Assembly: GCA_024654525.1 (NCBI GenBank) | Contig: JANLHI010000015.1 | Coordinates: 1-53,863, forward strand | From: Patescibacteria group bacterium | Lineage (GTDB): Bacteria > Patescibacteriota > Minisyncoccia > UBA6257 > 2-01-FULL-56-20 | Direction: 5' to 3' | DNA length: 53,863 nt | Shown: one piece after another, positions 1,433-53,863 of the stretch | How the letters are laid out: every line of letters begins with the position of its first letter | Numbering within the stretch: position 1 is the first letter of the stretch | Program-made: the position numbers and the translations under genes | The notes under the pieces: model-generated | What the model saw: the letters and a program-made list of their open reading frames with translations, nothing else | The model's database searches: none | Told to the model about the DNA's origin: nothing

Positions 1433-3238
1433 CTACGCCACTTCCGCTTGATAGCATTGTTCACAGTAAATAATCTCCTTTCGTTCCGGACCGTATGAAG
1501 TCTCGAACTCTATTTGGCAATGACCATCTCCATGGCTATGACTCACAAAGTTTTTATAAATACCGTTTTCCGAAGCAATGCCGGCACACTGACATTTCCT
1601 CACAAAAAACCTCGGGGAATTCCTCAATGCGAGCCGACTATAGTGACGACAATTCGGACAAAGACGTGGCAATGCGATATTCATCTGCTTGCAAAATGCC
1701 ACCTCTTCGGATACCACGCGGAACGCTCCGATACATTCTTCCTTGCACTCTCCCCGGTGTGCACACTCCAACACTTCTTGAACAACCTTATCACTTACCT
1801 CTTTGATGTGATCGGGAATTGAATCACTCTTTAAGGTAATGGGATATGTCTGACGCGTTGTGGGATACCACACAAATCCTTTATCTTTCGCCTCATGTTC
1901 ATCCAGCGGGAAAAACTCATATGCTTCGGTAGATTCATAAGGAAAAGGAGAAAGCTCCGATGGAAAAAATTCTCCGTAGGTATATATTCTTCCTTTCTTG
2001 TCCACGTACGGAATCTCGTGCATCTGCGCGATAATCCTTTCACGCAATTTTTCAAACTCATCCTTGGAATACTGCGTGTTGAAAATACAATATTGTTTCT
2101 TTTTAAGTCCAATACACCCGAAACAATCAGAGGAACCCGGACAGAATATGCAATACTCAAGATTTTTTACATTTGGAAAGTTATTCCAACAAAACCGAAC
2201 ATTGTATACACCCATACCCGCAATGAGAGTTTCATAGACAAGCTCGACATTCTCACCCCAATTTGAATAGTCGTAACAATCTTTGGAGGGTCCATCGAGA
2301 AAGTTCTGACAAAACTTGGAATCCTCGGTACCACGCACGCGGAAACATTGCTTCGCATTTTTCGACATGGATATATAATCCCCGCTTACGCCCAAATTTT
2401 GTCGCCCATGCATAAACTTATGCGGATACTTCTTCCAATGTGCGTATGCACGGCGCGTAAGTGCATCAAGCGATTTCGCAGAACCAATATCGAATGAGGC
2501 AAGCACTTCCGCGTAGCTCTCCTTGGTATGCGGTTCGTTCCAAATGTAATATGACTTATTCCGTAAACCAAAACATCCAAAACAATCGGAACATCCAACA
2601 CAATCTTTGGAAAGAATAACGCTCTGGCAATCTTCACAATCTACGGAGAAAAACGTCTTATAACATCGCATTGTGTTTAAATTTCCGTAACTCAATTCAC
2701 ATCGATTGGTCATATGACTATCCAAACAATGCTTTGATTCGTGATCCCAAATAAGATATATCGAATCTTCCGAACGCGTGGAAGCCCGGACAAGATAACA
2801 TCCCTTTAAATCGTTCGCATTGGTACAGTATTCACAGTTCACTAAATTCGTCACCGAATGTGCCGGCAACGGTACGGTATGGAAAAGGTCTCTAAACTGT
2901 TCGAAAAAGGGACGCTTAAAATCGTACACTCGTCCATAATCCATAGGATCCCACCCGTCTCCGTTCCAATACTCTTTCTCGTAAATTTTTATCGGACTTT
3001 CTTCGGGAAATAAAGAAAATATCTTCTCTCCCGTACGCGCATCCGTCTTCTTGAAAAGATGCCATGTATTGCGCCAACTCAATCTCCGCTGATACCGGCA
3101 ATGAGAACAAAATGTCGGTGGAGGCACCTGTATCTTCTCATAAAATGCAAAATCATCCGGTTCGATGATGAACTCATTCTTGCAATTTTGACAGGTTCGC
3201 ACTGAGCTCGCCGAAGTATTTTTTATTTCGCTGGTCAT
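1433..3238 (-). CDS. Cys-rich Zn-ribbon/repeat protein, paralog 2 (601 aa)
   Basis: CQNC...VPPPTFCSHCRYQRR, central CxxC/SxxC repeats, YGEFFP, CPNCRH, C-terminal YCEQCYQAEVA. ATGA overlap with the upstream paralog. Confidence 0.9.
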   Translation of the reverse strand: MTSEIKNTSASSVRTCQNCKNEFIIEPDDFAFYEKIQVPPPTFCSHCRYQRRLSWRNTWHLFKKTDARTGEKIFSLFPEESPIKIYEKEYWNGDGWDPMDYGRVYDFKRPFFEQFRDLFHTVPLPAHSVTNLVNCEYCTNANDLKGCYLVRASTRSEDSIYLIWDHESKHCLDSHMTNRCELSYGNLNTMRCYKTFFSVDCEDCQSVILSKDCVGCSDCFGCFGLRNKSYYIWNEPHTKESYAEVLASFDIGSAKSLDALTRRAYAHWKKYPHKFMHGRQNLGVSGDYISMSKNAKQCFRVRGTEDSKFCQNFLDGPSKDCYDYSNWGENVELVYETLIAGMGVYNVRFCWNNFPNVKNLEYCIFCPGSSDCFGCIGLKKKQYCIFNTQYSKDEFEKLRERIIAQMHEIPYVDKKGRIYTYGEFFPSELSPFPYESTEAYEFFPLDEHEAKDKGFVWYPTTRQTYPITLKSDSIPDHIKEVSDKVVQEVLECAHRGECKEECIGAFRVVSEEVAFCKQMNIALPRLCPNCRHYSRLALRNSPRFFVRKCQCAGIASENGIYKNFVSHSHGDGHCQIEFETSYGPERKEIIYCEQCYQAEVA

Positions 3239-4962
3239 ACGATTTCTGCATTATAACAAGCCTCACAATACACAATCTCCTTTCGCTCCGGCACGTACGG
3301 CGTTTCGAATTCGTTGGGGCATTGCCCCTCCGGGTGATGAGCGTGTTTCGCAGTATTCTCGTGAATCTTGTAATCGCACATACATTGACGATGCCACAGT
3401 TTTCGTGGCAATCGCAATGTAAGACGGCGGCGGTAACGGCATTCCGGACACAACCGCGGAATTGGCGTATTCGTGCGCCGATAAAAATCAAGCTCGGCTT
3501 GCACAATGTTGTAATTCCGCTTGCACCGCACACACGCAAGCGCTTCTTTCACAATTATATCGGGAACGTCTTTGATGTCGTCGGGGATACTTTCCGGTGT
3601 AAGCGTCTCCTTCCCGAACGTGCCGGGTATCACCTCTTCCCACTTGTACCCTTTCGCCGCCGCCTCCTCTTTCGTCATTGGCATATACACCTGTCCCTGC
3701 GTCTCGTTATAGCCAAAAGGCGAAAGTGTCGGTGGGAAAAATTCGCCGTATTCCCCCGTCTCTTTCATATGTGCGATAATTTTTTCTTTCAATGTCGCAT
3801 ACTCACTCTCCTCATAACGCTTGTTGAAAATGGAGTACTTCCCCTGTTTTATTCCCACGCACCCGAACAAATTTTCGCTGTTGTGGCAAGAGTCGCAATA
3901 TTCAAGATGGGAATTGTCGTAACTCAAGTGCGTAAACTTCACGTCGTAGTCGTGAATCAAGGCGTGGGACTCGTAAATCAACTCGCATGCATATCCATAA
4001 TGATAGGAATCCATGGTATTTTTCGCGTCACCGCACACGATGGCGTATTTCGAATCCTCTACTTTATGCGCGTCGAATGCATGTAGGCAACTTTTGGAAT
4101 TAATAATCGAGTTCCCGGACACCGCGGCTGACCTTTCAATAACCGCGAACCGCCGAAGCGCCCGCGCTTCAATTACCTCCCGGAACTGCACATATAACTC
4201 TTCCCGAGCACGTGCAGACCCCAACCTATATTCCACGATTTTTTTTTCGTACTCTTCTTTCGAGTATTGCTCATTCAGAATACAATACTGCTTATTCCTC
4301 AAATTCCAGCAAAGAAAACAGTTTGAGCAACCGCGAAGATCGTAGGAATAGAAACAATCAGTACAGTCTTTAAGGAGCGCACTATATTGGCAGTTATAAA
4401 TACGCAGGGAGTCCACACATTCATACGCGAGCTCCGCTCCCGCTTCAAAACTCATGAGGTAGCAATCCATACAATCTTTCGAGGGCTTGAGTACATTCGT
4501 GGAATACATAATATTCTCCGAATCGAATGTACCCATCGAAAGATAACAGTTCTTGTTGTTATTTGAGTGATTGGTATAATCCGAATTCACGCTGTTTTTG
4601 GTGAGCAACGCGATGCGCGGCACCTGAAGCTGCAATTCTTGCCATTGCGGAAAAAATGGCTTTGAGAAATCAAAGTCGTGTCCGTAATCAAAACCCGTCC
4701 ATTTATCCGACCAAAAACACGGCGGGCAATATACTTTGAACGGCTTGTTTGGCGAATAAATCGTTACCGCGCTTTTCCCGCATAAATCACAATTCCTTCG
4801 GTAGAGTACTCGCTCATTCCGCCATGCATACCTGCGACGCTGGCGGCAGTCCGGACACCGCACCGGCGCGGGAACCTTGAACTTCTCATAAAACTCAATA
4901 TCATCCGCCTCAATCGGAAATTGAATGCTACATTCTTTGCAAATTTGTTGTTCTGGAGTCAT
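3235..4962 (-). CDS. Cys-rich Zn-ribbon/repeat protein, paralog 3
   Basis: Same motif order. Start moved to MTPEQQICKEC (ATG 4962) to match paralog N-termini and avoid overlap with the divergent gene. Confidence 0.9.
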   Translation of the reverse strand: MTPEQQICKECSIQFPIEADDIEFYEKFKVPAPVRCPDCRQRRRYAWRNERVLYRRNCDLCGKSAVTIYSPNKPFKVYCPPCFWSDKWTGFDYGHDFDFSKPFFPQWQELQLQVPRIALLTKNSVNSDYTNHSNNNKNCYLSMGTFDSENIMYSTNVLKPSKDCMDCYLMSFEAGAELAYECVDSLRIYNCQYSALLKDCTDCFYSYDLRGCSNCFLCWNLRNKQYCILNEQYSKEEYEKKIVEYRLGSARAREELYVQFREVIEARALRRFAVIERSAAVSGNSIINSKSCLHAFDAHKVEDSKYAIVCGDAKNTMDSYHYGYACELIYESHALIHDYDVKFTHLSYDNSHLEYCDSCHNSENLFGCVGIKQGKYSIFNKRYEESEYATLKEKIIAHMKETGEYGEFFPPTLSPFGYNETQGQVYMPMTKEEAAAKGYKWEEVIPGTFGKETLTPESIPDDIKDVPDIIVKEALACVRCKRNYNIVQAELDFYRRTNTPIPRLCPECRYRRRLTLRLPRKLWHRQCMCDYKIHENTAKHAHHPEGQCPNEFETPYVPERKEIVYCEACYNAEIV

Positions 4963-22483: not shown

Positions 22484-22553
22484 TCTGGCGCCTGTCTACC
22501 GATAGGTAGATAGCTCAGCGGTACCTGCCTGCCGGCAGGCAGGGAGCGGCTCC
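22484..22553 (+). pseudogene. Degenerate 5' half of tRNA-Asn interrupted by two 20-nt insertions
   Basis: tctggcg[cctgtctaccgataggtaga]tagctcagcggta[cctgcctgccggcaggcagg]gagcggctcc. With the inserts removed it matches nt 1-30 of the intact tRNA at 29/30. Confidence 0.92.
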
Positions 22554-22560
22554 AAAGCCC

Positions 22561-22800
22561 ATGATTACAATCTATGCGCTACGAAGCCAAAAAGATGGAA
22601 GAATTTATGTCGGGATGACTGAAAATTTGCAACGCCGGATGGCAGAACATAACCAAGGATTGGTCTTTTCCACAAAAGGATTCTTACCTTGGAAAATTAT
22701 TTACCGTGAAGATGCTCCTGACCGAGTAGCCGCGAGAAAAAGAGAAAAGTTTCTGAAAGGCGGTTCGGGAAAAGAGTATCTCAAAAAGATTCCGGCGTAG
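22561..22800 (+). CDS. Small stand-alone GIY-YIG nuclease (79 aa)
   Basis: TIYAL..IYVGMTENLQRRMAEHN..YRE..ARKREKFLK. Its last codons and TAG lie in tRNA nt 1-10. Confidence 0.9.
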   Translation: MITIYALRSQKDGRIYVGMTENLQRRMAEHNQGLVFSTKGFLPWKIIYREDAPDRVAARKREKFLKGGSGKEYLKKIPA

Positions 22801-22865
22801 CTCAGCGGTAGAGCGGCTCCCTGTTAAGGAGATGGTCGCAGGTTCGATCCCTGCCGCCGGAGCCA
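22791..22865 (+). tRNA. tRNA-Asn (GTT)
   Basis: Acceptor TCCGGCG/CGCCGGA, D arm GCTC/GAGC, anticodon loop CT-GTT-AA, T arm GCAGG-TTCGATC-CCTGC, discriminator G, encoded CCA. Confidence 0.96.
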
Positions 22866-29567: not shown

Positions 29568-30641
29568 TTACGGAGCCGCTGTTTGCCGTAAGCGAAAGAA
29601 TGCTACATCCGAAGTGCTAAACACGTTGGTGAACACCGACCCCGGAGTATATACCCCAGGCACACTGCTTCCTGTTCCCGACAGGAAATTCTCCCACGGT
29701 CCGGACGGACGGAAGGCGTACACCACGTTATAACCGAACTCCGGTTGTCCCGTGATGCCAATTTCATATCCATCTCCGACTTTCCGAATGGATGCCCGCG
29801 GTCTCGTATCTAACACCACCTCGGCACTTCCGATTATGGTATTGTCCGCGGCCTTGAGCGTGTACCGGCACCCAACGAAAAACCCTTCCGCCGTGAGCGC
29901 ATTCCTGTCTGCGCCTATGTCCGCAAGATTCGCGGCGGAAAAGGAGCTACTCACCCCCATGTACCGCAACTCATGAACAAGCGCCGAAGGCGATATTGGC
30001 GCAGTATCGCTGTTATACCAAATATCGTCTCCCGTGTTCGGAACACTGTCGCTCCCGTAATTGTGCCCCTGGAGAATGAATTGGTACGGAATATCCGCAC
30101 CAGTCGCCGAGTTTCTGGATATTCTCCCGATGAGGTTTAGTCCCTCAAATGAGGATTTGATTTCAAACTCCACCTGATTCGCCGAAAATGGAATCCCGTT
30201 CGTTGAGAGAGCGGTGACTGTCCATTTTATCCGGTTCCCCCTCTCATTTGAGAATGTCCCTGACGGATTTGCCCTTCCCCGCCACACCTTGAACGCATTT
30301 GAGCTCGAGAGCACCATATCGCCCCACTCGAGGTAGGCGATGTTGTGCCACGCGGCAGGATTTTGGGTCCTGTCGTTCGGCACCGTTTGGTACCCGAGTC
30401 CTGTCAAGATGTTAAGTTTGTTTGCGGCGTAGTTTGGTGACGCAACGCTCACTCCCGAGACGGGAATGATTGTCACCATCACCCTCGCAGTGTGGATTAA
30501 ACTCTTCCTCACTACAGAAGGAGATGTGATAGCGGGAACGGCACTTATACCATCCTCTCCATTTTCCGACTGCGCGCTCGCCGGCGCGATGTATCCCATG
30601 GATGCGATAAACACACCCACCAACATTGTTAGTCTTTTCAT
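29568..30641 (-). CDS. Secreted protein whose mature N-terminus is QSENGEDG; unknown function
   Basis: Signal peptide MKRLTMLVGVFIASMGYIAPASA; beta-rich C-terminus ending AFFRLRQ; start at ATG 30641. Confidence 0.75.
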   Translation of the reverse strand: MKRLTMLVGVFIASMGYIAPASAQSENGEDGISAVPAITSPSVVRKSLIHTARVMVTIIPVSGVSVASPNYAANKLNILTGLGYQTVPNDRTQNPAAWHNIAYLEWGDMVLSSSNAFKVWRGRANPSGTFSNERGNRIKWTVTALSTNGIPFSANQVEFEIKSSFEGLNLIGRISRNSATGADIPYQFILQGHNYGSDSVPNTGDDIWYNSDTAPISPSALVHELRYMGVSSSFSAANLADIGADRNALTAEGFFVGCRYTLKAADNTIIGSAEVVLDTRPRASIRKVGDGYEIGITGQPEFGYNVVYAFRPSGPWENFLSGTGSSVPGVYTPGSVFTNVFSTSDVAFFRLRQTAAP

Positions 30642-48307: not shown

Positions 48308-49558
48308 TCACACCACTATCACTTTTTCTCTTTTCTCCAAAGGAATTTCGACCTTTGTACCATCCTTGAATCGCACTCTTTTCTTTGGGCGTTTTAGCTT
48401 CCGCACCACATGGAGCGGGTAAAACTCAAAGTATTCTTTCTCGTCGAACCACGCGCACTTGAATTCAAAAAGCCGCAGGCCTGTCAAGCGCGACAAAGCA
48501 AGCGCGTACCACGTGAGTTGTTCAATGGGACGCTCCTTCGCGGCATTCGGTTTGTAGTCCAGAATGTGCACGCACCCATTGCGGACTTGGACTAAATCTA
48601 TGTGCCCGGTGAGGAGATTGGGCAACCCCGTGCCACGATTGTCCTGCCGCTTTTGCGCGGTCCCCTCGGACGGCTCAATGCGAGCATCAATATCGGCACC
48701 GGGACGCGCACGCCTTCCTCCTTTGAGTTGCATTCCTTCCTCTCCTAATATGTTGAATCCAAGCTCGTTTTGGAGATGTTTAATATCTTCCCGGCGTATA
48801 TACACCGGCACTTCCGTCGCCACCATCACGCTGTCGTTCGCAATCATAAACCGTTGGATTTGTTCGTGCCGCTCCTTATTCTCGCGCACGGAGGCAAGCA
48901 CGAACGCCGCGAGCCGGTTTGCGTAGTTGGTTTTTCCCTTCACAATCATTTGCGCCTTATCGAACCGCGATTTCACTTCCGACATCCGCGCACCGTCTTG
49001 GAAATACTGGTGCGGCGTTTCCGTGGAAACCGCATCAAGATAGTCCTTGAGGCGCGAGAGACGCCGGTTGCCAAATTCCTGAAGCATCAAGGCAATTTTT
49101 GCGCGGTGGTAACGGAAACGATACAGCTGACGGTGCGCGAGCGTGACCACTTCGACCGTTTCGCGGGGCTTGCAATACTTTACTGCGTAAGGACGAAGTC
49201 TCGCATAACGGCAAAGGTCTTCGTGCTCGTCAATCCATGCGGAGAGCGTGGCGGGCTCCGGCGAAACACCAAACTTTTTCTTCACAAGCGCGCACGCCTC
49301 CTCGCGCGTGAAGCCAAGATTGTAATAACTCATCGCCTCGATCACGATGGCAAGCGGAAAATGTTTGCCCTTCACATCGCTCCACGTGAATGTCCGCCCG
49401 CACTCCGGGTTTTTGCAAAGGTAGAGTTGCACCGTGCGATGCTTGTTATCCCGCAAGCCGCGCTTTACGAATTCTTTCGATTCGCAATACGGACACGCGA
49501 GCGCGGCGACATCGGGATCGCGCTCACGGCGGGCCGACATTGCCACAATTCGCGTCAT
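48308..49558 (-). CDS. IS1-InsA-like Zn ribbon/HTH fused to a C-terminal PD-(D/E)XK nuclease
   Basis: CPYCES..VKRG..QLYLCKNPECGRTF; helical HTH-like segment (TLSAWI); TEVPVY, GHIDLVQ, ILDYKP, QLTWYALAL. The start could be 49540. Confidence 0.8.
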   Translation of the reverse strand: MTRIVAMSARRERDPDVAALACPYCESKEFVKRGLRDNKHRTVQLYLCKNPECGRTFTWSDVKGKHFPLAIVIEAMSYYNLGFTREEACALVKKKFGVSPEPATLSAWIDEHEDLCRYARLRPYAVKYCKPRETVEVVTLAHRQLYRFRYHRAKIALMLQEFGNRRLSRLKDYLDAVSTETPHQYFQDGARMSEVKSRFDKAQMIVKGKTNYANRLAAFVLASVRENKERHEQIQRFMIANDSVMVATEVPVYIRREDIKHLQNELGFNILGEEGMQLKGGRRARPGADIDARIEPSEGTAQKRQDNRGTGLPNLLTGHIDLVQVRNGCVHILDYKPNAAKERPIEQLTWYALALSRLTGLRLFEFKCAWFDEKEYFEFYPLHVVRKLKRPKKRVRFKDGTKVEIPLEKREKVIVV

Positions 49559-49830
49559 CGATAGAGGTCATGCGTTCCCACATCATGGAGCAACGCCACG
49601 CCATCACGGGGAAACGAAACAAGGATTCGGTAAGCCTGTACTACAGAAAACGACCAAAAGCCGGAGAGCTTGCCGCCGAGCTTGTGTGTTTTGAGAAATA
49701 GGCTGAAAGGATTATTTTCAAACATCCTCACCCGCGCCACAACATTGCGGCGGAATTCCGGAGGAAGTCTCCCGAACGCACGCTCGAAATGCGAAGTTGT
49801 TTCAACGCGAACGCCGTGCGCCTCGTGCAT
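49555..49830 (-). CDS. RelE/YafQ-type mRNA interferase toxin
   Basis: TTSHFERAFGRL..FENNPF..LKTHKLGGKLSGFWSFSV..YRILVSF..LHDVGTHDLYR; start at ATG 49830. Confidence 0.88.
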   Translation of the reverse strand: MHEAHGVRVETTSHFERAFGRLPPEFRRNVVARVRMFENNPFSLFLKTHKLGGKLSGFWSFSVVQAYRILVSFPRDGVALLHDVGTHDLYR

Positions 49831-50023
49831 GGAGGGGATGTGAAGTAGTAAGAAACGTCTCAAAGGTGCGGGTTTCCCCTCTGCGAAATTCCCGTGTTCC
49901 TTCACGAGCAATGCGAAGCACGTCCTCCACGCCAAAACTACGGCCACCCTGACGCCATCCTTTAGGAATACGAATGATGATTTCCTTTTTTGTTTCGGTA
50001 ATTGTAGGTACTCCTGTTTCCAT
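49802..50023 (-). CDS. Probable cognate antitoxin (73 aa)
   Basis: Small ORF directly upstream of and overlapping the toxin; a TTGACG-16-TACAGT promoter-like sequence lies 6 nt before its ATG. Confidence 0.7.
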   Translation of the reverse strand: METGVPTITETKKEIIIRIPKGWRQGGRSFGVEDVLRIAREGTREFRRGETRTFETFLTTSHPLHARGARRSR

Positions 50024-50084
50024 ATCCTTACTGTATCAAAATGTGGCATGACGTCAAACAAGACCATTTCACGATTTTCTTATA

Positions 50085-50141
50085 ATCAAATCGCACGAGT
50101 TTTTAGCTTTTATGCCTTCGTTGTGGCTATTCGTGAGACCC
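50085..50141 (-). repeat. ~57-bp imperfect direct repeat, copy 1 (copy 2 at 51057..51113)
   Basis: The first 18 nt (gggtctcacgaatagcca) are identical; about three-quarters identity overall by hand alignment. Confidence 0.8.
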
Positions 50142-50189: not shown

Positions 50190-50444
50190 TCATACTCTTT
50201 TTGAAGATTTTATAAGACCGTTGATCAATTTATGGACGTGTACTGATTGATCGTACATTGTATGGAAATCGCTCTGGGAAAGAAAACTGGCATCGCGTGC
50301 CACATGTAATTGGCTTTGAACCTCTCCAACAGAACCGCGCGCCATCGCATAAAACTGAACTTTTTCTTTGGAATGCTCCCGATTAAATTCCTCGGCGATG
50401 TTTGAAGTAACGGAAACCGCAGCACGCCGCATCTGATTCGCCAA
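50190..50444 (-). pseudogene. 5'-truncated four-helix-bundle (23S IVP-type) gene
   Basis: QMRRAAVSVTSNIAEEFNR..KEKVQFYAMARGSVGEVQSQL. The N-terminal FRDL/VWQ helix is missing and an in-frame TAG lies just upstream. Confidence 0.8.
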
Positions 50445-50492: not shown

Positions 50493-50534
50493 GGAAAGGT
50501 TCAACCTTGCCAAATGGCAAGGTTGAACCTTTCC
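50493..50534. repeat. Nested palindrome: 20-bp perfect arms, each containing AAGGTT(C/G)AACCTT
   Basis: ggaaaggttcaaccttgcca-aa-tggcaaggttgaacctttcc. Confidence 0.95.
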
Positions 50535-50621: not shown

Positions 50622-50658
50622 CAAAAAGCCGTCAAAACAACCCTTTGACGGCTTTTTG
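50622..50658 (-). terminator. Hairpin with 15-bp arms spanning the 3' end of the PemK gene
   Basis: caaaaagccgtcaaa...tttgacggctttttg. Confidence 0.65.
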
Positions 50659-51030
50659 TATACGCTCGAACACATCCTTCTCAAGGAAACCGACTTTATT
50701 AGTAAACCGCTTTGTATCTACAACGCGGACTTGAGAAATCAATGCGGATGCGCTCTGTCCCTCTACAATCCCCGCTGGCACACGCATTTTGTGTTTTTTT
50801 GAAGAAGTCGTGAGCGGTACCACTAGGCACGTGTGCGGACCGAGTCCTTTCAAAATAAGCACCGGGCGCTCGAATTCCATCCCCGTGCCATCCTCCTCAA
50901 AGCCGACGTTTGCTCCAAGTGAGCACCACCACACCTCCCGCTCATGATAAAGTTTACCCACACGGGCGTGATGAATCTCTTTTTTCTTCTCATTCCACCC
51001 ATCAAAGTCTTTTTTGTGCTTTTTCTCCAT
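50632..51030 (-). CDS. PemK/MazF-family toxin with no adjacent antitoxin
   Basis: HEREVWWCSLGANVGFEEDG..RPVLIL..VVPLTT..ISQVRVVDTKRF. Confidence 0.88.
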   Translation of the reverse strand: MEKKHKKDFDGWNEKKKEIHHARVGKLYHEREVWWCSLGANVGFEEDGTGMEFERPVLILKGLGPHTCLVVPLTTSSKKHKMRVPAGIVEGQSASALISQVRVVDTKRFTNKVGFLEKDVFERIQKAVKGLF

Positions 51031-51064
51031 ATCACACATATCACGAGTCCTTTGATATCCAATC

Positions 51065-51370
51065 TCACGACTTTCTCGCTTTTAAATCCTTATTATGGCT
51101 ATTCGTGAGACCCCGCACCTTGTCCAAACCACACCGCTTCTTCAGTTCCTGATACGCCTTCCCGAAATATTTTAGTTGCTTTTCTCGCTTCCGCGCACAC
51201 CATTCGTGAAGATACGCTTCGTAATACACGAGTGATACGGGAAGGCGATACTTCGTAGCAAATACCGAGCCTTGGCGATGTTCATCAAAGCGCCTCTGTA
51301 AGTCGTTCGTTGAACCGATATATAATTTCTCATCGCGCTGGCTCTTCAACACATACACATAGTACATCAT
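51065..51370 (-). CDS. Small stand-alone GIY-YIG nuclease (101 aa including read-through tail)
   Basis: MMYYVYVLKS..LYIGSTNDLQRRFDEH..YYEAY..ARKREKQLK. Confidence 0.92.
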   Translation of the reverse strand: MMYYVYVLKSQRDEKLYIGSTNDLQRRFDEHRQGSVFATKYRLPVSLVYYEAYLHEWCARKREKQLKYFGKAYQELKKRCGLDKVRGLTNSHNKDLKARKS

Positions 51371-51385
51371 GGACAAGGTGCGGGG
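51111..51385 (-). mobile_element. Putative 275-bp GIY-YIG mini-element with 16-bp terminal inverted repeats and 5-bp flanking direct repeats
   Basis: TGAGA[ccccgcaccttgtcca ... tggacaaggtgcgggg]TGAGA. The inverted repeats are perfect and overlap the ATG and the C-terminal LDKVRG codons. Confidence 0.75.
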
Positions 51386-51420
51386 TGAGATAAAAACGGG
51401 ATTAACAAGCTCAACACGAA

Positions 51421-51546
51421 GGCAAACTCGGCATCGGGACGGTAAATTTCGGAACCAGACCAAGCATGAAAATCACTACTCCTCAAACCCGCACCACAGT
51501 TCTATACAAACGATTTTACGACCTTGCGCTACCAAAGGTAGCATAG
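51421..51546 (+). other. Inverted copy of the GNVGIGT junction heading a start-less 41-codon frame (possible silent C-terminal cassette)
   Basis: ggcaaactcggcatcgggacg matches the junction at 19/21. It reads GKLGIGTVNFG...LPKVA*, with TAG at 51544..51546 abutting the giant gene's stop at 51547..51549. Confidence 0.55.
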
Positions 51547-53863
51547 TTATTTTCTTCCTGGAGGAACCTCCTGTGATGCAGGGTCAAACTCCCTTACGTC
51601 AATCCCGTTCACACCGTCATGGTTGAGATTTCCCCATTTCGTGTAATCCACGCGCGGAGCGGAAAGTTGGTAGGAAACCGAAACGGGGCGGTCAGCATAA
51701 AGCGTAATCTCCTCCCGCACAGGATTCAGCTCATACCACACCTTTGCTTCTCCTTCCGGCGTAAGGAACACCGAGAGCCGATTCCATGCGGTTTTAACCC
51801 CGAAATTGCTGGTTTTCTTGAAAAGCCACAGGTCAGAACCTTCTGACTCGTTTCCGAACGCAATCACATGTGTGTAGACGTTTTTCTCTGATTTTGTGAG
51901 TGCGACCTTCCCCGTCGTCTGCGTCCGCACTCCGCCCACATTATCGGGGCTGTACGTCGCGTAATTGATTCCCTCGATGGTGAATACCGGGTCAAAGGTT
52001 CCTGCGGTGATTTTACCCGCACCTCCCCCCACCACCAACACGTCCGTGGAAGTTGCTCCGACACGCGCGGTAGTCGCCCCACCGCTCGCAATGTCAAGTT
52101 TATAACTGGGACTCGTCGTCCCGATGCCGACGTTGCCGCTGCCTAAAATAGTCATTTTCTCTACAAATCCACTTCCCGAAGTGTATCCAAAAAAGTCTAA
52201 ACCGTATGTGTCACCTGTATCTCTCATTTTAATTGCAGCTACATTGGTAGGTGATCCACCATCAGTAGAAAAGTAAAGACCACCATTATATGCGGTGCCA
52301 CCTGTCGCATCATGTCGTATCCTAATACCAGACGAACCATCTGTTCCCGACTTATACACATCAAGAGCATATCCCGGCGCCGTCATCCCGATGCCGACGT
52401 TGCCGTTTGTATCGATAACCTCTCTTACTAAATTATTAGTAATGAAAGCTAAACTTTCGCTGCCTGCCGTATATATTCCATGTCTGAACGCGGCACCAAA
52501 TCCTTGAATATCGGCGGCGTCGTTTATGGCAAATTTAATGCCCCCATTTGTAGCAGGGTCTACTACATAAAATTGAGCTAAACCCGTAACTGATGTTTTG
52601 CCGACAGGTGTTGAAGCTACTTGTAATTTAGCAGTGCTTGGCGCCGTCGTCCCGATGCCGACGTTGCCGGAGGTATCTATCACCATTTTTGAGCCAGCGA
52701 CTGTTTCACCGCCACCTGTAATGAATGAAATACCTCTCTGAGTTCCCGTTCCATTTTTGTTCGTCCCTATTTTGAACCAGCCTGCTTCGTTGCTCATTCC
52801 CAAAAACATATAGCTAGAATTGTTGGGGTCAGATGCCGCCCAATTTATAAGGCCATACGATTCAGCTCCATGCCCTACATCCACGCGGCCGACTACATCA
52901 AGTTTCGCTCCCGGACTCGTCGTCCCAATCCCGACGTTGCCGTTGAATGCAAAAGTTCCAGGCTGTGCATTGTAACCCGTAAAATAGAGCAGGGCACTCG
53001 CACTAAACGCCTGGTTACCGCTTTCGATATAGTTCTTCCCGCCGCTCCCGCCAAACCAAACTTTGCTTGTCCCATCGCCGACATAAAGCCCACTTCCTCC
53101 GGAAAATACCGCGGAGGTGCCCACAACTGCGCCACTACTACTGACGGTAAATTGATTACTAGCCCCAACTGACAACAATGCCGTCGGCCCCGTCGTCCCG
53201 ATGCCGACGTTGCCGCTCGTATCCATGAACATGCCAGTGTTGAAAGTCCCCGAAGCGCTTGAATGAGTTTGGATCTGTAAAGTTGAAGCATAAGAAGTGA
53301 CCGAAGACATCCGGCTGGTAAACTTGGTGCTATAATCCCCCGCGACCGCGTCATCACGTCCCATAGAAAATACAATATCGCGGTTTGTGCCATGCCCCAG
53401 CGAAAGATGCATAAGATTTGTGGCCGTGCTGTCCGCGCCTGCACGGTGGATTTGCAAAGGTGCGTTCGGTCCCGCCGTCCCAATGCCGACGTTGCCGGAA
53501 GTTGCCAAAATCGTAACTCTCGGGTTATAAGTTGTTCCGTTATAGTCTCCGATAACCTGCCTACCTTGACCCGATGACCCCGTAGAAAAATACAAGTCAT
53601 GTTCATAAGAATTTCCTGCCATATCCGTTCCCAAACCCATCCATGCTTGGGAGTCTGCATCCAGTCCGTAAGTTTGTATTCTTGGACCGCCGGCAAAAGC
53701 TCCCCCAACCATAATAGCCGGCGCGGCAGTGCTGGTTTTCTGAACTTGCAACTTATACGATGGTCCCGTCGTCCCTATCCCAACCCGGTCATTCGTGGCA
53801 TCGATATACATCACATCCGCAGTGGAGTTGTAGTGCTGGAATTCATAGTTTCCTTTGGTGGAA
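51547..53863 (-). CDS. Giant GNVGIGT-module surface/fibre protein, C-terminal part (5'-truncated by the window edge)
   Basis: The frame is open to the window end (STKGNYEFQHYNSTADVMYIDATNDRVGIGTT...). Seven VGIG junctions are spaced 264-294 bp apart, followed by a distinct C-terminal domain (DPVFTI..SDLWLF..VSYQLSAPR). Confidence 0.9.
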   Translation of the reverse strand, partial: STKGNYEFQHYNSTADVMYIDATNDRVGIGTTGPSYKLQVQKTSTAAPAIMVGGAFAGGPRIQTYGLDADSQAWMGLGTDMAGNSYEHDLYFSTGSSGQGRQVIGDYNGTTYNPRVTILATSGNVGIGTAGPNAPLQIHRAGADSTATNLMHLSLGHGTNRDIVFSMGRDDAVAGDYSTKFTSRMSSVTSYASTLQIQTHSSASGTFNTGMFMDTSGNVGIGTTGPTALLSVGASNQFTVSSSGAVVGTSAVFSGGSGLYVGDGTSKVWFGGSGGKNYIESGNQAFSASALLYFTGYNAQPGTFAFNGNVGIGTTSPGAKLDVVGRVDVGHGAESYGLINWAASDPNNSSYMFLGMSNEAGWFKIGTNKNGTGTQRGISFITGGGETVAGSKMVIDTSGNVGIGTTAPSTAKLQVASTPVGKTSVTGLAQFYVVDPATNGGIKFAINDAADIQGFGAAFRHGIYTAGSESLAFITNNLVREVIDTNGNVGIGMTAPGYALDVYKSGTDGSSGIRIRHDATGGTAYNGGLYFSTDGGSPTNVAAIKMRDTGDTYGLDFFGYTSGSGFVEKMTILGSGNVGIGTTSPSYKLDIASGGATTARVGATSTDVLVVGGGAGKITAGTFDPVFTIEGINYATYSPDNVGGVRTQTTGKVALTKSEKNVYTHVIAFGNESEGSDLWLFKKTSNFGVKTAWNRLSVFLTPEGEAKVWYELNPVREEITLYADRPVSVSYQLSAPRVDYTKWGNLNHDGVNGIDVREFDPASQEVPPGRK

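Follow-up and report, generated by a model that had tools for sequence, protein, structure and literature searches.

A small GIY-YIG nuclease gene enclosed by the two arms of a hairpin repeat in a Patescibacteria contig: a candidate insertable unit related to the Ssn nucleases

SsnA (NMB0047) of Neisseria is a single-domain GIY-YIG nuclease of 94 amino acids (aa) that belongs to family cd10448 (Chenal et al. 2025, PMC11893778). It has been shown to bind a hairpin repeat termed NTS (CGTCATTCCCGCGMAVGCGGGAATCYRG) and to cut only single-stranded DNA, just upstream of the NTS; it also restricts transformation by NTS-bearing DNA, and its domestication has been proposed (PMC11893778). Ssn homologues across bacteria are flanked by ‘Ssn-related motifs’ (SRMs), and the NTS-ssnA-NTS arrangement has been likened both to an insertion sequence and to the RAYT/REP system, with no mobility reported (PMC11893778). 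The multiplication of short palindromic repeats in bacterial genomes is a long-standing question that has been answered only for REP sequences, through the RAYT transposases; the Ssn study tied a second class of enzyme to such repeats and left mobility open (PMC11893778). Here a related locus is described from a contig of a Patescibacteria group bacterium (GenBank assembly GCA_024654525.1, contig JANLHI010000015.1, positions 1 to 53,863 of the forward strand; this whole stretch of 53,863 nt is called ‘the window’), in which a small GIY-YIG nuclease gene lies between the two arms of one inverted repeat. We lean, with modest confidence, towards the view that this is a selfish insertable unit, namely an Ssn-type nuclease gene that occupies the loop of a DNA hairpin cognate to it. 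The window copy and about 85 relatives together provide sequence evidence that the repeat-nuclease unit has itself been inserted, all of the evidence for movement coming from the relatives and not from the window copy.

The window unit measures 275 bp between its duplications and is bounded by a perfect 16-bp inverted repeat. On the plus strand, its left arm (CCCCGCACCTTGTCCA) lies at 51111..51126 and its right arm (TGGACAAGGTGCGGGG) at 51370..51385, and both are abutted on the outside by the pentamer TGAGA, at 51106..51110 on the left, where it forms the last 5 nt of a conserved flank ending ..TTCGTGAGA, and at 51386..51390 on the right, where it is followed by TAAAAAC. If A51110 and T51386 are counted in, the arms become 17 nt long (51110-51126, ACCCCGCACCTTGTCCA, and 51370-51386, TGGACAAGGTGCGGGGT), are 100% complementary and enclose 243 nt. 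The direct repeats of the family usually take the form T-N-N-A and range from 3 to 5 nt (5 nt in the window), so that A51110 and T51386 fall to the duplication and the 16-bp parse is the better one; the 16-bp inverted repeats, the TGAGA duplication and the 275-bp unit described in an earlier sequence-only reading of this DNA are exact. The outer 9 nt of the left arm (CCCCGCACC) are kept in relatives, and its inner part covaries with the other arm. Folded as single-stranded DNA, the unit is closed as a whole by the terminal stem (-47.1 kcal/mol, z -3.3).

The sole plausible gene of the unit is an open reading frame (ORF) of 101 aa on the minus strand (51065..51370), which matches the GIY-YIG family PF01541 of Pfam (E 5.6e-13). 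Residues 1-81 form its core (51128-51370), and a 20-aa read-through tail crosses the left arm, which codes for ..GLDKVRG.., into the flank, where a TGA supplies the stop; both points had been correctly noted before. The same reading had the other repeat overlapping the start codon: the right arm does touch the first ATG, the first base of the arm being the A of that codon, but the overlap is of one base only and the second Met is an equally likely start. The unit is a real feature, and it has perfect arms, a perfect duplication, intact catalytic residues and a lost stop codon. A chance palindrome around an ordinary gene would agree with there being a single occurrence in the window and nothing else; against it, a perfect 17-bp repeat at such a spacing is expected about 0.004 times per window (our own estimate), the 16-mer has two exact copies in 53.9 kb and three matches at <=3 mismatches where 0.32 are expected, and the same architecture, with covarying arms, recurs in about 85 independent contigs, such that the probability of chance is negligible.

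Reading outwards, the right-arm sequence at 51369-51385 (ATGGACAAGGTGCGGGG) contains an ATG that opens an ORF at 51369..51626, and outward-reading ATGs of this kind in the arms may let genes downstream of an insertion stay translated. A partial copy that had been reported near 51487 is real: it is a solo half-site (AAACCCGCACC) at 51485-51495 on the plus strand, and a second half-site lies on the opposite strand at 49861-49875. These are possibly the remnant of another end, and no partner arm was found for either in the window. A pairing of the half-site at 49861-49875 with CCCGCAC at 49397, which would bracket the neighbouring ORF, was rejected as the inner bases are not complementary. Positions 49865-49875 and 51485-51495 share 11 nt of complementarity and face outward, at a length that is near chance, and their reading as the ends of a larger island is left uncertain.

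By sequence, the nuclease of the unit is a relative of SsnA and the Ssn nucleases. PF01541 is its only true domain, and it is accordingly a single-domain GIY-YIG protein in the ~80-100-aa class, with the catalytic Tyr, Arg and Glu; NCBIfam holds no specific family for it. When compared with SsnA of N. gonorrhoeae (the orthologue was taken from the gonococcal chromosome, where nine exact NTS copies are found around ssnA), it shows 40% identity over 72 aa (50.8 bits), and the best match of SsnA in the window is the gene of the unit (E 1e-10), making the two reciprocal best hits. In the comparison of SsnA with UPF0213 fragments, a profile of the family (A1) gives 54 bits against 38 and 25. Among solved structures, those closest in sequence are the UPF0213 proteins BH0048 (1zg2, E 1.8e-8) and EF2693 (1ywl, 1e-4), followed by Slx1, and UPF0213 fragments reach 30-32 bits against the window protein, below the 50.8 bits of SsnA. 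Sixty-two database proteins match the window nuclease at E <= 1e-10, with Y6, Y17, I18, G19, R27, R62 and E63 invariant. Most of these homologues are 81 aa long and end, at about residue 81, where the left arm begins in the window unit, so that the 20-aa tail of the window protein is to be read as the loss of a stop codon and not as a family trait; the lack of an internal stop, pointed out previously, is thus true of the window copy but is shared by only a few other homologues (e.g. P0008, which ends ..GTKVRGITETP). The termini of the window arms fit the SRM stem classes YYVSBRH / WNVSBRG.

In all, 454 relatives of the nuclease were found, and 19 loci from species-representative genomes and 80 from metagenomes were fetched (designated by L numbers below), the comparison contigs being metagenomic. 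The genome loci come from Doudnabacteria, other Patescibacteria, Elusimicrobia, Nitrospira, Syntrophaceae, Omnitrophota, WOR-3 and Hadesarchaea; no relatives were found among the viral contigs of IMG/VR. In about 85 of 100 loci, which span many phyla (Patescibacteria, Elusimicrobia, Nitrospirota, Omnitrophota, WOR-3 and others), the homologous gene of ~81 aa lies within an inverted repeat whose outer bases read CCCC(C)RCAC.../...GTGYG(G)GGG; the upstream arm is 8-130 nt before the start and the downstream arm at or just past the stop. The inner bases differ between loci and stay complementary: among 62 non-redundant units, 82-100% have a Watson-Crick pair at each of arm positions 1-13, as compared with 35-60% when partners are shuffled, and positions 5-13 are variable, with two to four different pair types each. 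Across the ~85 loci the subtype of the repeat tracks the protein tree clade by clade. As far as this comparison shows, arms and gene have been inherited and diversified together.

The same arms also occur without a gene. Gene-less versions of 26-170 bp were found on the same contigs as complete units in L004, L008, L011 and L025, with at least four copies within 3 kb in L004 and two ~100-bp copies of the window's own repeat subtype in L025; in L008 the gene has such a copy on either side, as in the published hairpin-gene-hairpin layout. Whilst in the window a single hairpin supplies both arms around the gene, complete small hairpins are carried by L005, L008 and L011. No bracketing inverted repeat was seen within 160 nt of the gene in L015, L017 (Hadesarchaea) or the clade L037, L040, L043, L047, L049, L052, L061 and L073, and in these relatives the repeat may have been lost or the layout may be another one.

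The position of the arms raises the question of a role in RNA, in which a long-range stem between the 5' and 3' ends of the mRNA would hide the start codon or stabilize the transcript of a potentially toxic nuclease, with no mobility involved. In its favour, the upstream arm ends at the ATG in the window and lies 8-50 nt upstream in most loci, with the other arm at or just after the stop. The pairing, however, is strictly Watson-Crick, with a single G-T pair (at position 5) in arm positions 1-12, which is unlike RNA helices and fits a constraint on DNA, where both strands must fold. There are copies of the same arms without a gene, the gene may point either way with respect to the flanks, direct repeats accompany units, some alleles have a unit where others lack it, and Rfam at gathering thresholds detects nothing at the unit, only a tRNA-Asn in the window. 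An RNA-only stem is for these reasons held to be very improbable, although the repeat may have an added regulatory role at the RNA level.

The flanks of the relatives bear on the claim that TGAGA is a target duplication. Units were anchored on the C-run and G-run of their arms, and among 65 non-redundant gene-bearing units an exact direct repeat of >=4 nt abuts the arms in 29, as against 3.9 +/- 1.8 by permutation (downstream flanks shuffled among loci, 5000 trials, maximum 11; clade structure in the flanks is not fully removed by this procedure). Six of the 29 are palindromic (TATA, CATG) and hence ambiguous; the non-palindromic ones include TAGA, TTTA, TAAA, TTGA, TAAAA, TGATA, TATCA and TCTCA, and the gene-less copies show the same pattern. 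In the window's clade (L021-L029, 68-73% protein identity) the pentamer TGAKA/TMTCA is present on both sides of the unit in L021, L022, L023, L024 and L029, so that duplicated flanks are carried by other copies as well. The flanks of this clade follow the scheme ..TCGTGAKA|CCCC....GGGG|TGAKATATG.., in which the pentamer is always TGAKA, and unoccupied CGTGATAT sites are found near its units. The gene runs in the sense of these asymmetric flanks in L021, L022, L024, L025 and L027, and antisense to them in the window, L023 and L029. This pattern is consistent with units having entered a preferred site, CGTGAKAT, in either orientation and having duplicated 5 bp of it. In the window unit, the reconstructed empty junction would read ..GGCTATTCGTGAGATAAAAACGGG...

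Several relatives interrupt recognizable genes, and from these it is shown, at the level of sequence, that units of the family get inserted into new sites. In L002 (from a Patescibacteria metagenome-assembled genome) and L036, two units with diverged 86-aa genes both lie inside one ORF6N-type gene; in L058, from another metagenome, the first unit is present, the second is absent and the ORF6N gene reads straight through (..KYDGKIADIYRVLDLFDKEEKNNKKQEIGFKCG). To the left of the site L002 and L058 have no mismatches in 847 nt and then 5 in 9 nt, and to the right they have 2 mismatches in the first 4 nt and then 4 in about 1370 nt. Expressed differently, seven substitutions fall in ~21 nt (L002 1447-1455 and 1765-1767) and only four in the surrounding ~2.2 kb, which looks like co-conversion from a diverged donor and not like a simple cut-and-fill duplication. 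At 1033-1053 of L002 the arm (ATGCTTAAAAGGTGCGGGGT) supplies an ATG, such that MLKRCGV is fused in frame to the interrupted ORF6N gene. Removal of the unit and one TATA from L014 and L082 restores an uninterrupted tyrosine-recombinase motif, and the same codon (RY|IQELLGH) is occupied in six independent contigs (L014, L082, L007, L010, L042 and L057), with the right flank reading GGGGTATATYCARGA..; a distant tyrosine-recombinase homologue in L048 is empty at this codon. In L063 removal of the unit restores a dnaE-like N-terminus (MKF|THLHVHSHYSLLDG). Several units lie at the extreme 5' end of a gene, and conserved gene motifs are also frequent sites. Comparison of the loci thus shows units that are present or absent between otherwise identical alleles and that leave gene-less miniature derivatives. 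The empty site that had been called for was therefore found for a relative (L058 versus L002/L036), but none was found for the window copy.

Further observations were made at these insertion sites. A further unit end follows directly after ..TTEIY in L010, and the units of L089 and L005 lie in the N-terminal part of tyrosine-recombinase genes. In L006/L013 (~2950-3300) the first codons of the downstream epimerase-like gene (IIVAAARPNF) recur in the flank upstream of the unit, as do those of the downstream gene in L021/L027 (ATGCGTGATA); in both cases the repeated 5' codons differ only synonymously, as if the unit had brought a replacement 5' end. A filled/empty pair considered for L046/L044 (80-92% flank identity) showed neither a clean duplication nor a restored frame and offers weak support only.

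Two further rival explanations were weighed. The first is that the window locus is a domesticated, immobile Ssn locus, in which the arms serve as a recognition hairpin around their own gene for self-marking or autoregulation, the nuclease has a host function in restricting or shaping incoming single-stranded DNA, and the copy is fixed and vertically inherited. SsnA itself limits transformation by NTS-bearing DNA and its domestication has been proposed (PMC11893778), the window has one copy only and no further repeat, and TGAKA and the adjoining flank are conserved across the window's clade. Set against this are a site that is filled in some alleles and empty in another, the interruption of ORF6N, integrase and dnaE-like genes, a contig with two diverged copies, the variable direct repeats of sister clades (TAGA, TTTA, TAAA, TTGA, TACA, TTAA) and a patchy spread over unrelated phyla in place of simple vertical inheritance; domestication is unlikely on this evidence, whilst retaining more weight than any other rival.

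The second is that the unit is a non-autonomous shell whose repeat ends (CCCCGCAC...) are used by an unlinked transposase or recombinase, for example a tyrosine recombinase, and that the GIY-YIG gene is mere cargo. Terminal repeats with duplications of 4-5 bp are what DDE-type transposition classically leaves, DNA cannot be rejoined by a nuclease that is hydrolytic, and many relatives lie in or beside tyrosine-recombinase genes. Those recombinase genes are, however, interrupted targets and not intact partners, the arm termini fit the stem classes of Ssn-related motifs, and the same gene family sits inside the repeat in ~85 loci. As the type of repeat and the nuclease clade co-vary across these loci, the capture of the gene by a shell resembling a MITE (a miniature transposable element with inverted repeats), raised as an option by the sequence-only reading, is unlikely. 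A search for a DDE transposase with matching ends elsewhere had been suggested as a check; no transposase was found near the unit, and none of 10 ORFs scanned between 24.5 and 53.8 kb, six of which lie less than 10 kb from the unit and which include its nearest neighbours, showed a transposase domain (among those sampled were RecG, the small chain of ribonucleotide reductase, a signal peptidase and a PD-(D/E)XK protein). The shell is judged improbable, and clearly more so than domestication.

The explanation preferred here, a selfish unit that consists of an Ssn-type nuclease gene and its own split hairpin, would involve the following steps. In a single-stranded state, as may arise during replication, repair or uptake, the arms would fold into a hairpin; the unit's own nuclease would bind the base of this hairpin and nick beside it, as SsnA does beside the NTS; and host replication or recombination, invoked because a GIY-YIG enzyme hydrolyses DNA and cannot rejoin it, would complete a copy at a new T-N(2-3)-A site or at a homologous one. 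We infer this mechanism, recognition of folded arms on single-stranded DNA followed by nicking beside them, by analogy with SsnA. Target motifs that are conserved, the repeated use of certain sites in conserved genes and the patch that resembles conversion speak for a homing-like route assisted by recombination no less than for classical transposition.

A number of points weigh against this explanation. About half of the 65 units have no exact direct repeat. In the window's clade TGAKA could be a fixed directional tail, like the CGTCAT of the NTS, which together with inversion between the arms would also fit the flanks; the reading as insertion with duplication is favoured because the tetramers are variable in sister clades. 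The ~21-nt patch in L002/L058 points to recombination or gene conversion and away from classical transposition, and a hydrolytic nuclease alone cannot explain the joining of strands. The activity and specificity of the window nuclease are predicted, and its placement in cd10448 is putative, by proxy scores. The published SRM pattern (HGTCWY..RNCYNB), taken strictly, and the NTS pattern have no match in the window, and both find nine sites around gonococcal ssnA. Finally, no empty allele was found for the window unit and no second copy of it in the window, and an exact look-up of the neighbouring MazF-like protein, aimed at another assembly of the locus, returned nothing.

What has been known since 2025 is that a small GIY-YIG Ssn nuclease is accompanied by cognate flanking hairpins in a layout like that of an insertion sequence (PMC11893778). 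As far as the literature consulted shows, the arm-gene-arm architecture, the 4-5-nt duplications, the insertions in coding genes with restored frames and the filled/empty pair are new with respect to that study, in the text of which the words ‘duplication’ and ‘Patescibacteria’ do not occur; no other paper was found on GIY-YIG-only elements with target duplications. The earlier proposal of a new class of ultra-small mobile element therefore stands in so far as there is an insertable, recurrent unit whose sole gene is that of a small GIY-YIG nuclease, but to speak of a new class goes too far, as the Ssn layout as such had already been described (PMC11893778). A wider proposition is that these units are autonomous mobile elements with a ~80-aa hydrolytic single-strand nuclease as their only protein, which spread by hairpin-directed nicking with subsequent host replication or recombination, duplicate 4-5 bp, prefer the 5' ends and conserved motifs of genes as targets and give rise to the hairpin repeats present in many bacterial genomes, possibly including those of the NTS/dRS3 type and other palindromic elements. 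This is offered tentatively, as a possibility that at present falls short of being probable; if true, it would amount to a class of insertion sequences that lacks a transposase. The hypothesis of mobility can be put to a direct test in a system as small as one protein of 81 aa and an arm of 16 nt, and the units are natural sources of new nucleases that are specific for single-stranded DNA and have different hairpin specificities.

In the window the unit lies between the 3' end of a gene for a 755-aa repeat protein and one copy of a direct repeat of ~77 nt, here termed D1. Its copies, D1a (50065-50141) and D1b (51037-51113), are 74-81% identical and carry three TCACGA/TCGTGAKA motifs; on the minus strand they end at the ATG of the ORF 49555..50067 and of a MazF-like gene (50632..51039), respectively. 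The conserved flank of ~75 nt that belongs to D1b (51037..51105, +), with its TCACGA/TCGTGAKA motifs, separates the unit from the start codon of the MazF-like gene. D1-like sequence also abuts the unit in L001, L022 and L023, so that D1 is either a target that the unit favours or an accessory portion of it. D1a, 1 kb away, is preceded by a truncated gene of the 23S_rRNA_IVP family, and its end, ..CGTGAGACCC|aagcg, looks like a hairpin end that was cut short. The 23S_rRNA_IVP gene (PF05635, E 4e-22; 50190-50444, minus strand) is without ~31 N-terminal residues; immediately upstream there is a perfect palindrome of 20 bp whose loop is 2 nt long (50493-50534), and a further IVP-like fragment is found at 29718-29783. 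At 48308-49558 (minus strand), in the window's only stretch above 50% G+C, a gene of 416 aa codes for a Cys-rich, zinc-ribbon-like N-terminal segment and a PD-(D/E)XK domain (PF12705, E 3e-5). The PD-(D/E)XK gene, the MazF-like gene, the IVP fragment and the GIY-YIG unit together look like a small island of selfish or defence genes. The 755-aa ORF (51547-53814, minus strand) has no Pfam match and contains many ..SGNVGIGTT.P.. repeats, which are also visible in the DNA as 21-nt matches at 52117, 52648, 53194 and 53475. A second small GIY-YIG gene, 48% identical to that of the unit, is located at 22561..22800 and runs into a tRNA-Asn gene (22791-22865). Upstream of it, positions 22510-22553 repeat the D-arm and the 5' strand of the anticodon stem of the tRNA, and this repeated segment is split by a perfect 20-nt palindrome (22524-22543); L012 has the same layout as window positions 22510-22865, with a tRNA-Trp and a CCCCGCCC hairpin.

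When compared with known systems, the unit shares features with several. It has the terminal inverted repeats of an insertion sequence, but its sole ORF is a GIY-YIG hydrolase and not a transposase of the DDE, HUH, serine or tyrosine type. The RAYT/REPIN and IS200/IS605 systems likewise combine a small gene flanked by inverted hairpin repeats, gene-less doublets and an enzyme that acts on folded single-stranded DNA; their enzyme, however, is an HUH/Y1 transesterase that is able to rejoin DNA (in REPIN-RAYT a TnpA IS200-like gene), whereas the window gene codes for a hydrolytic GIY-YIG protein. IS200/IS605 elements are not known to make a target duplication or to have terminal inverted repeats, whereas the present units show terminal inverted repeats and, on the preferred reading, a duplication.

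GIY-YIG homing genes (I-TevI and free-standing Seg-type genes) share the catalytic domain and the recurrent, precise sites seen here in the integrase motif RY|IQELLGH, at codon 3 of dnaE and in ORF6N, and the replacement patch in the L002/L058 flanks resembles their co-conversion. GIY-YIG homing endonucleases are of ~245 aa and join the nuclease to a DNA-binding domain, and to our knowledge their genes are not bounded by inverted and direct repeats; the present protein is an 81-aa core with no DNA-binding domain, no intron or intein is involved, and inverted and direct repeats bound the unit. MITEs, Correia elements and Rickettsia palindromic elements also have terminal inverted repeats, small duplications and occasional in-frame insertion into genes. 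The gene-less relatives of 26-170 bp look like these and qualify as such, but the window unit is coding, and we know of no classical MITE or palindromic element with a dedicated enzyme gene inside its repeat. The UPF0213 and Slx1-like proteins (BH0048, EF2693, YhbQ) are of the same size and fold class and score lower than SsnA; we are aware of no flanking repeats associated with stand-alone UPF0213 proteins.

The closest system remains Ssn/NTS. It differs in that its gene stands between two complete 28-nt hairpins, whereas here the gene stands inside one split hairpin (arm-gene-arm), and in that the present family shows 4-5-nt direct repeats, insertions in coding genes and a filled/empty allele, the text of the Ssn study describing no duplication (PMC11893778). 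Ssn/NTS hosts are mainly Pseudomonadati, and the present family is found in uncultivated phyla; in place of the many motif copies per genome that mark Ssn systems, the 53.9 kb of the window contain the arm pair and two 11-nt half-sites, with no expansion of the repeat. In both systems, nevertheless, a single-domain GIY-YIG protein of ~80-95 aa is encoded between G+C-rich hairpin repeats with stems of the form YCCCGC.../...GCGGGR, a short conserved 5' tail is attached to the repeat (CGTGAKA in the window's clade, CGTCAT in the NTS), and gene-less copies of the repeat lie nearby.

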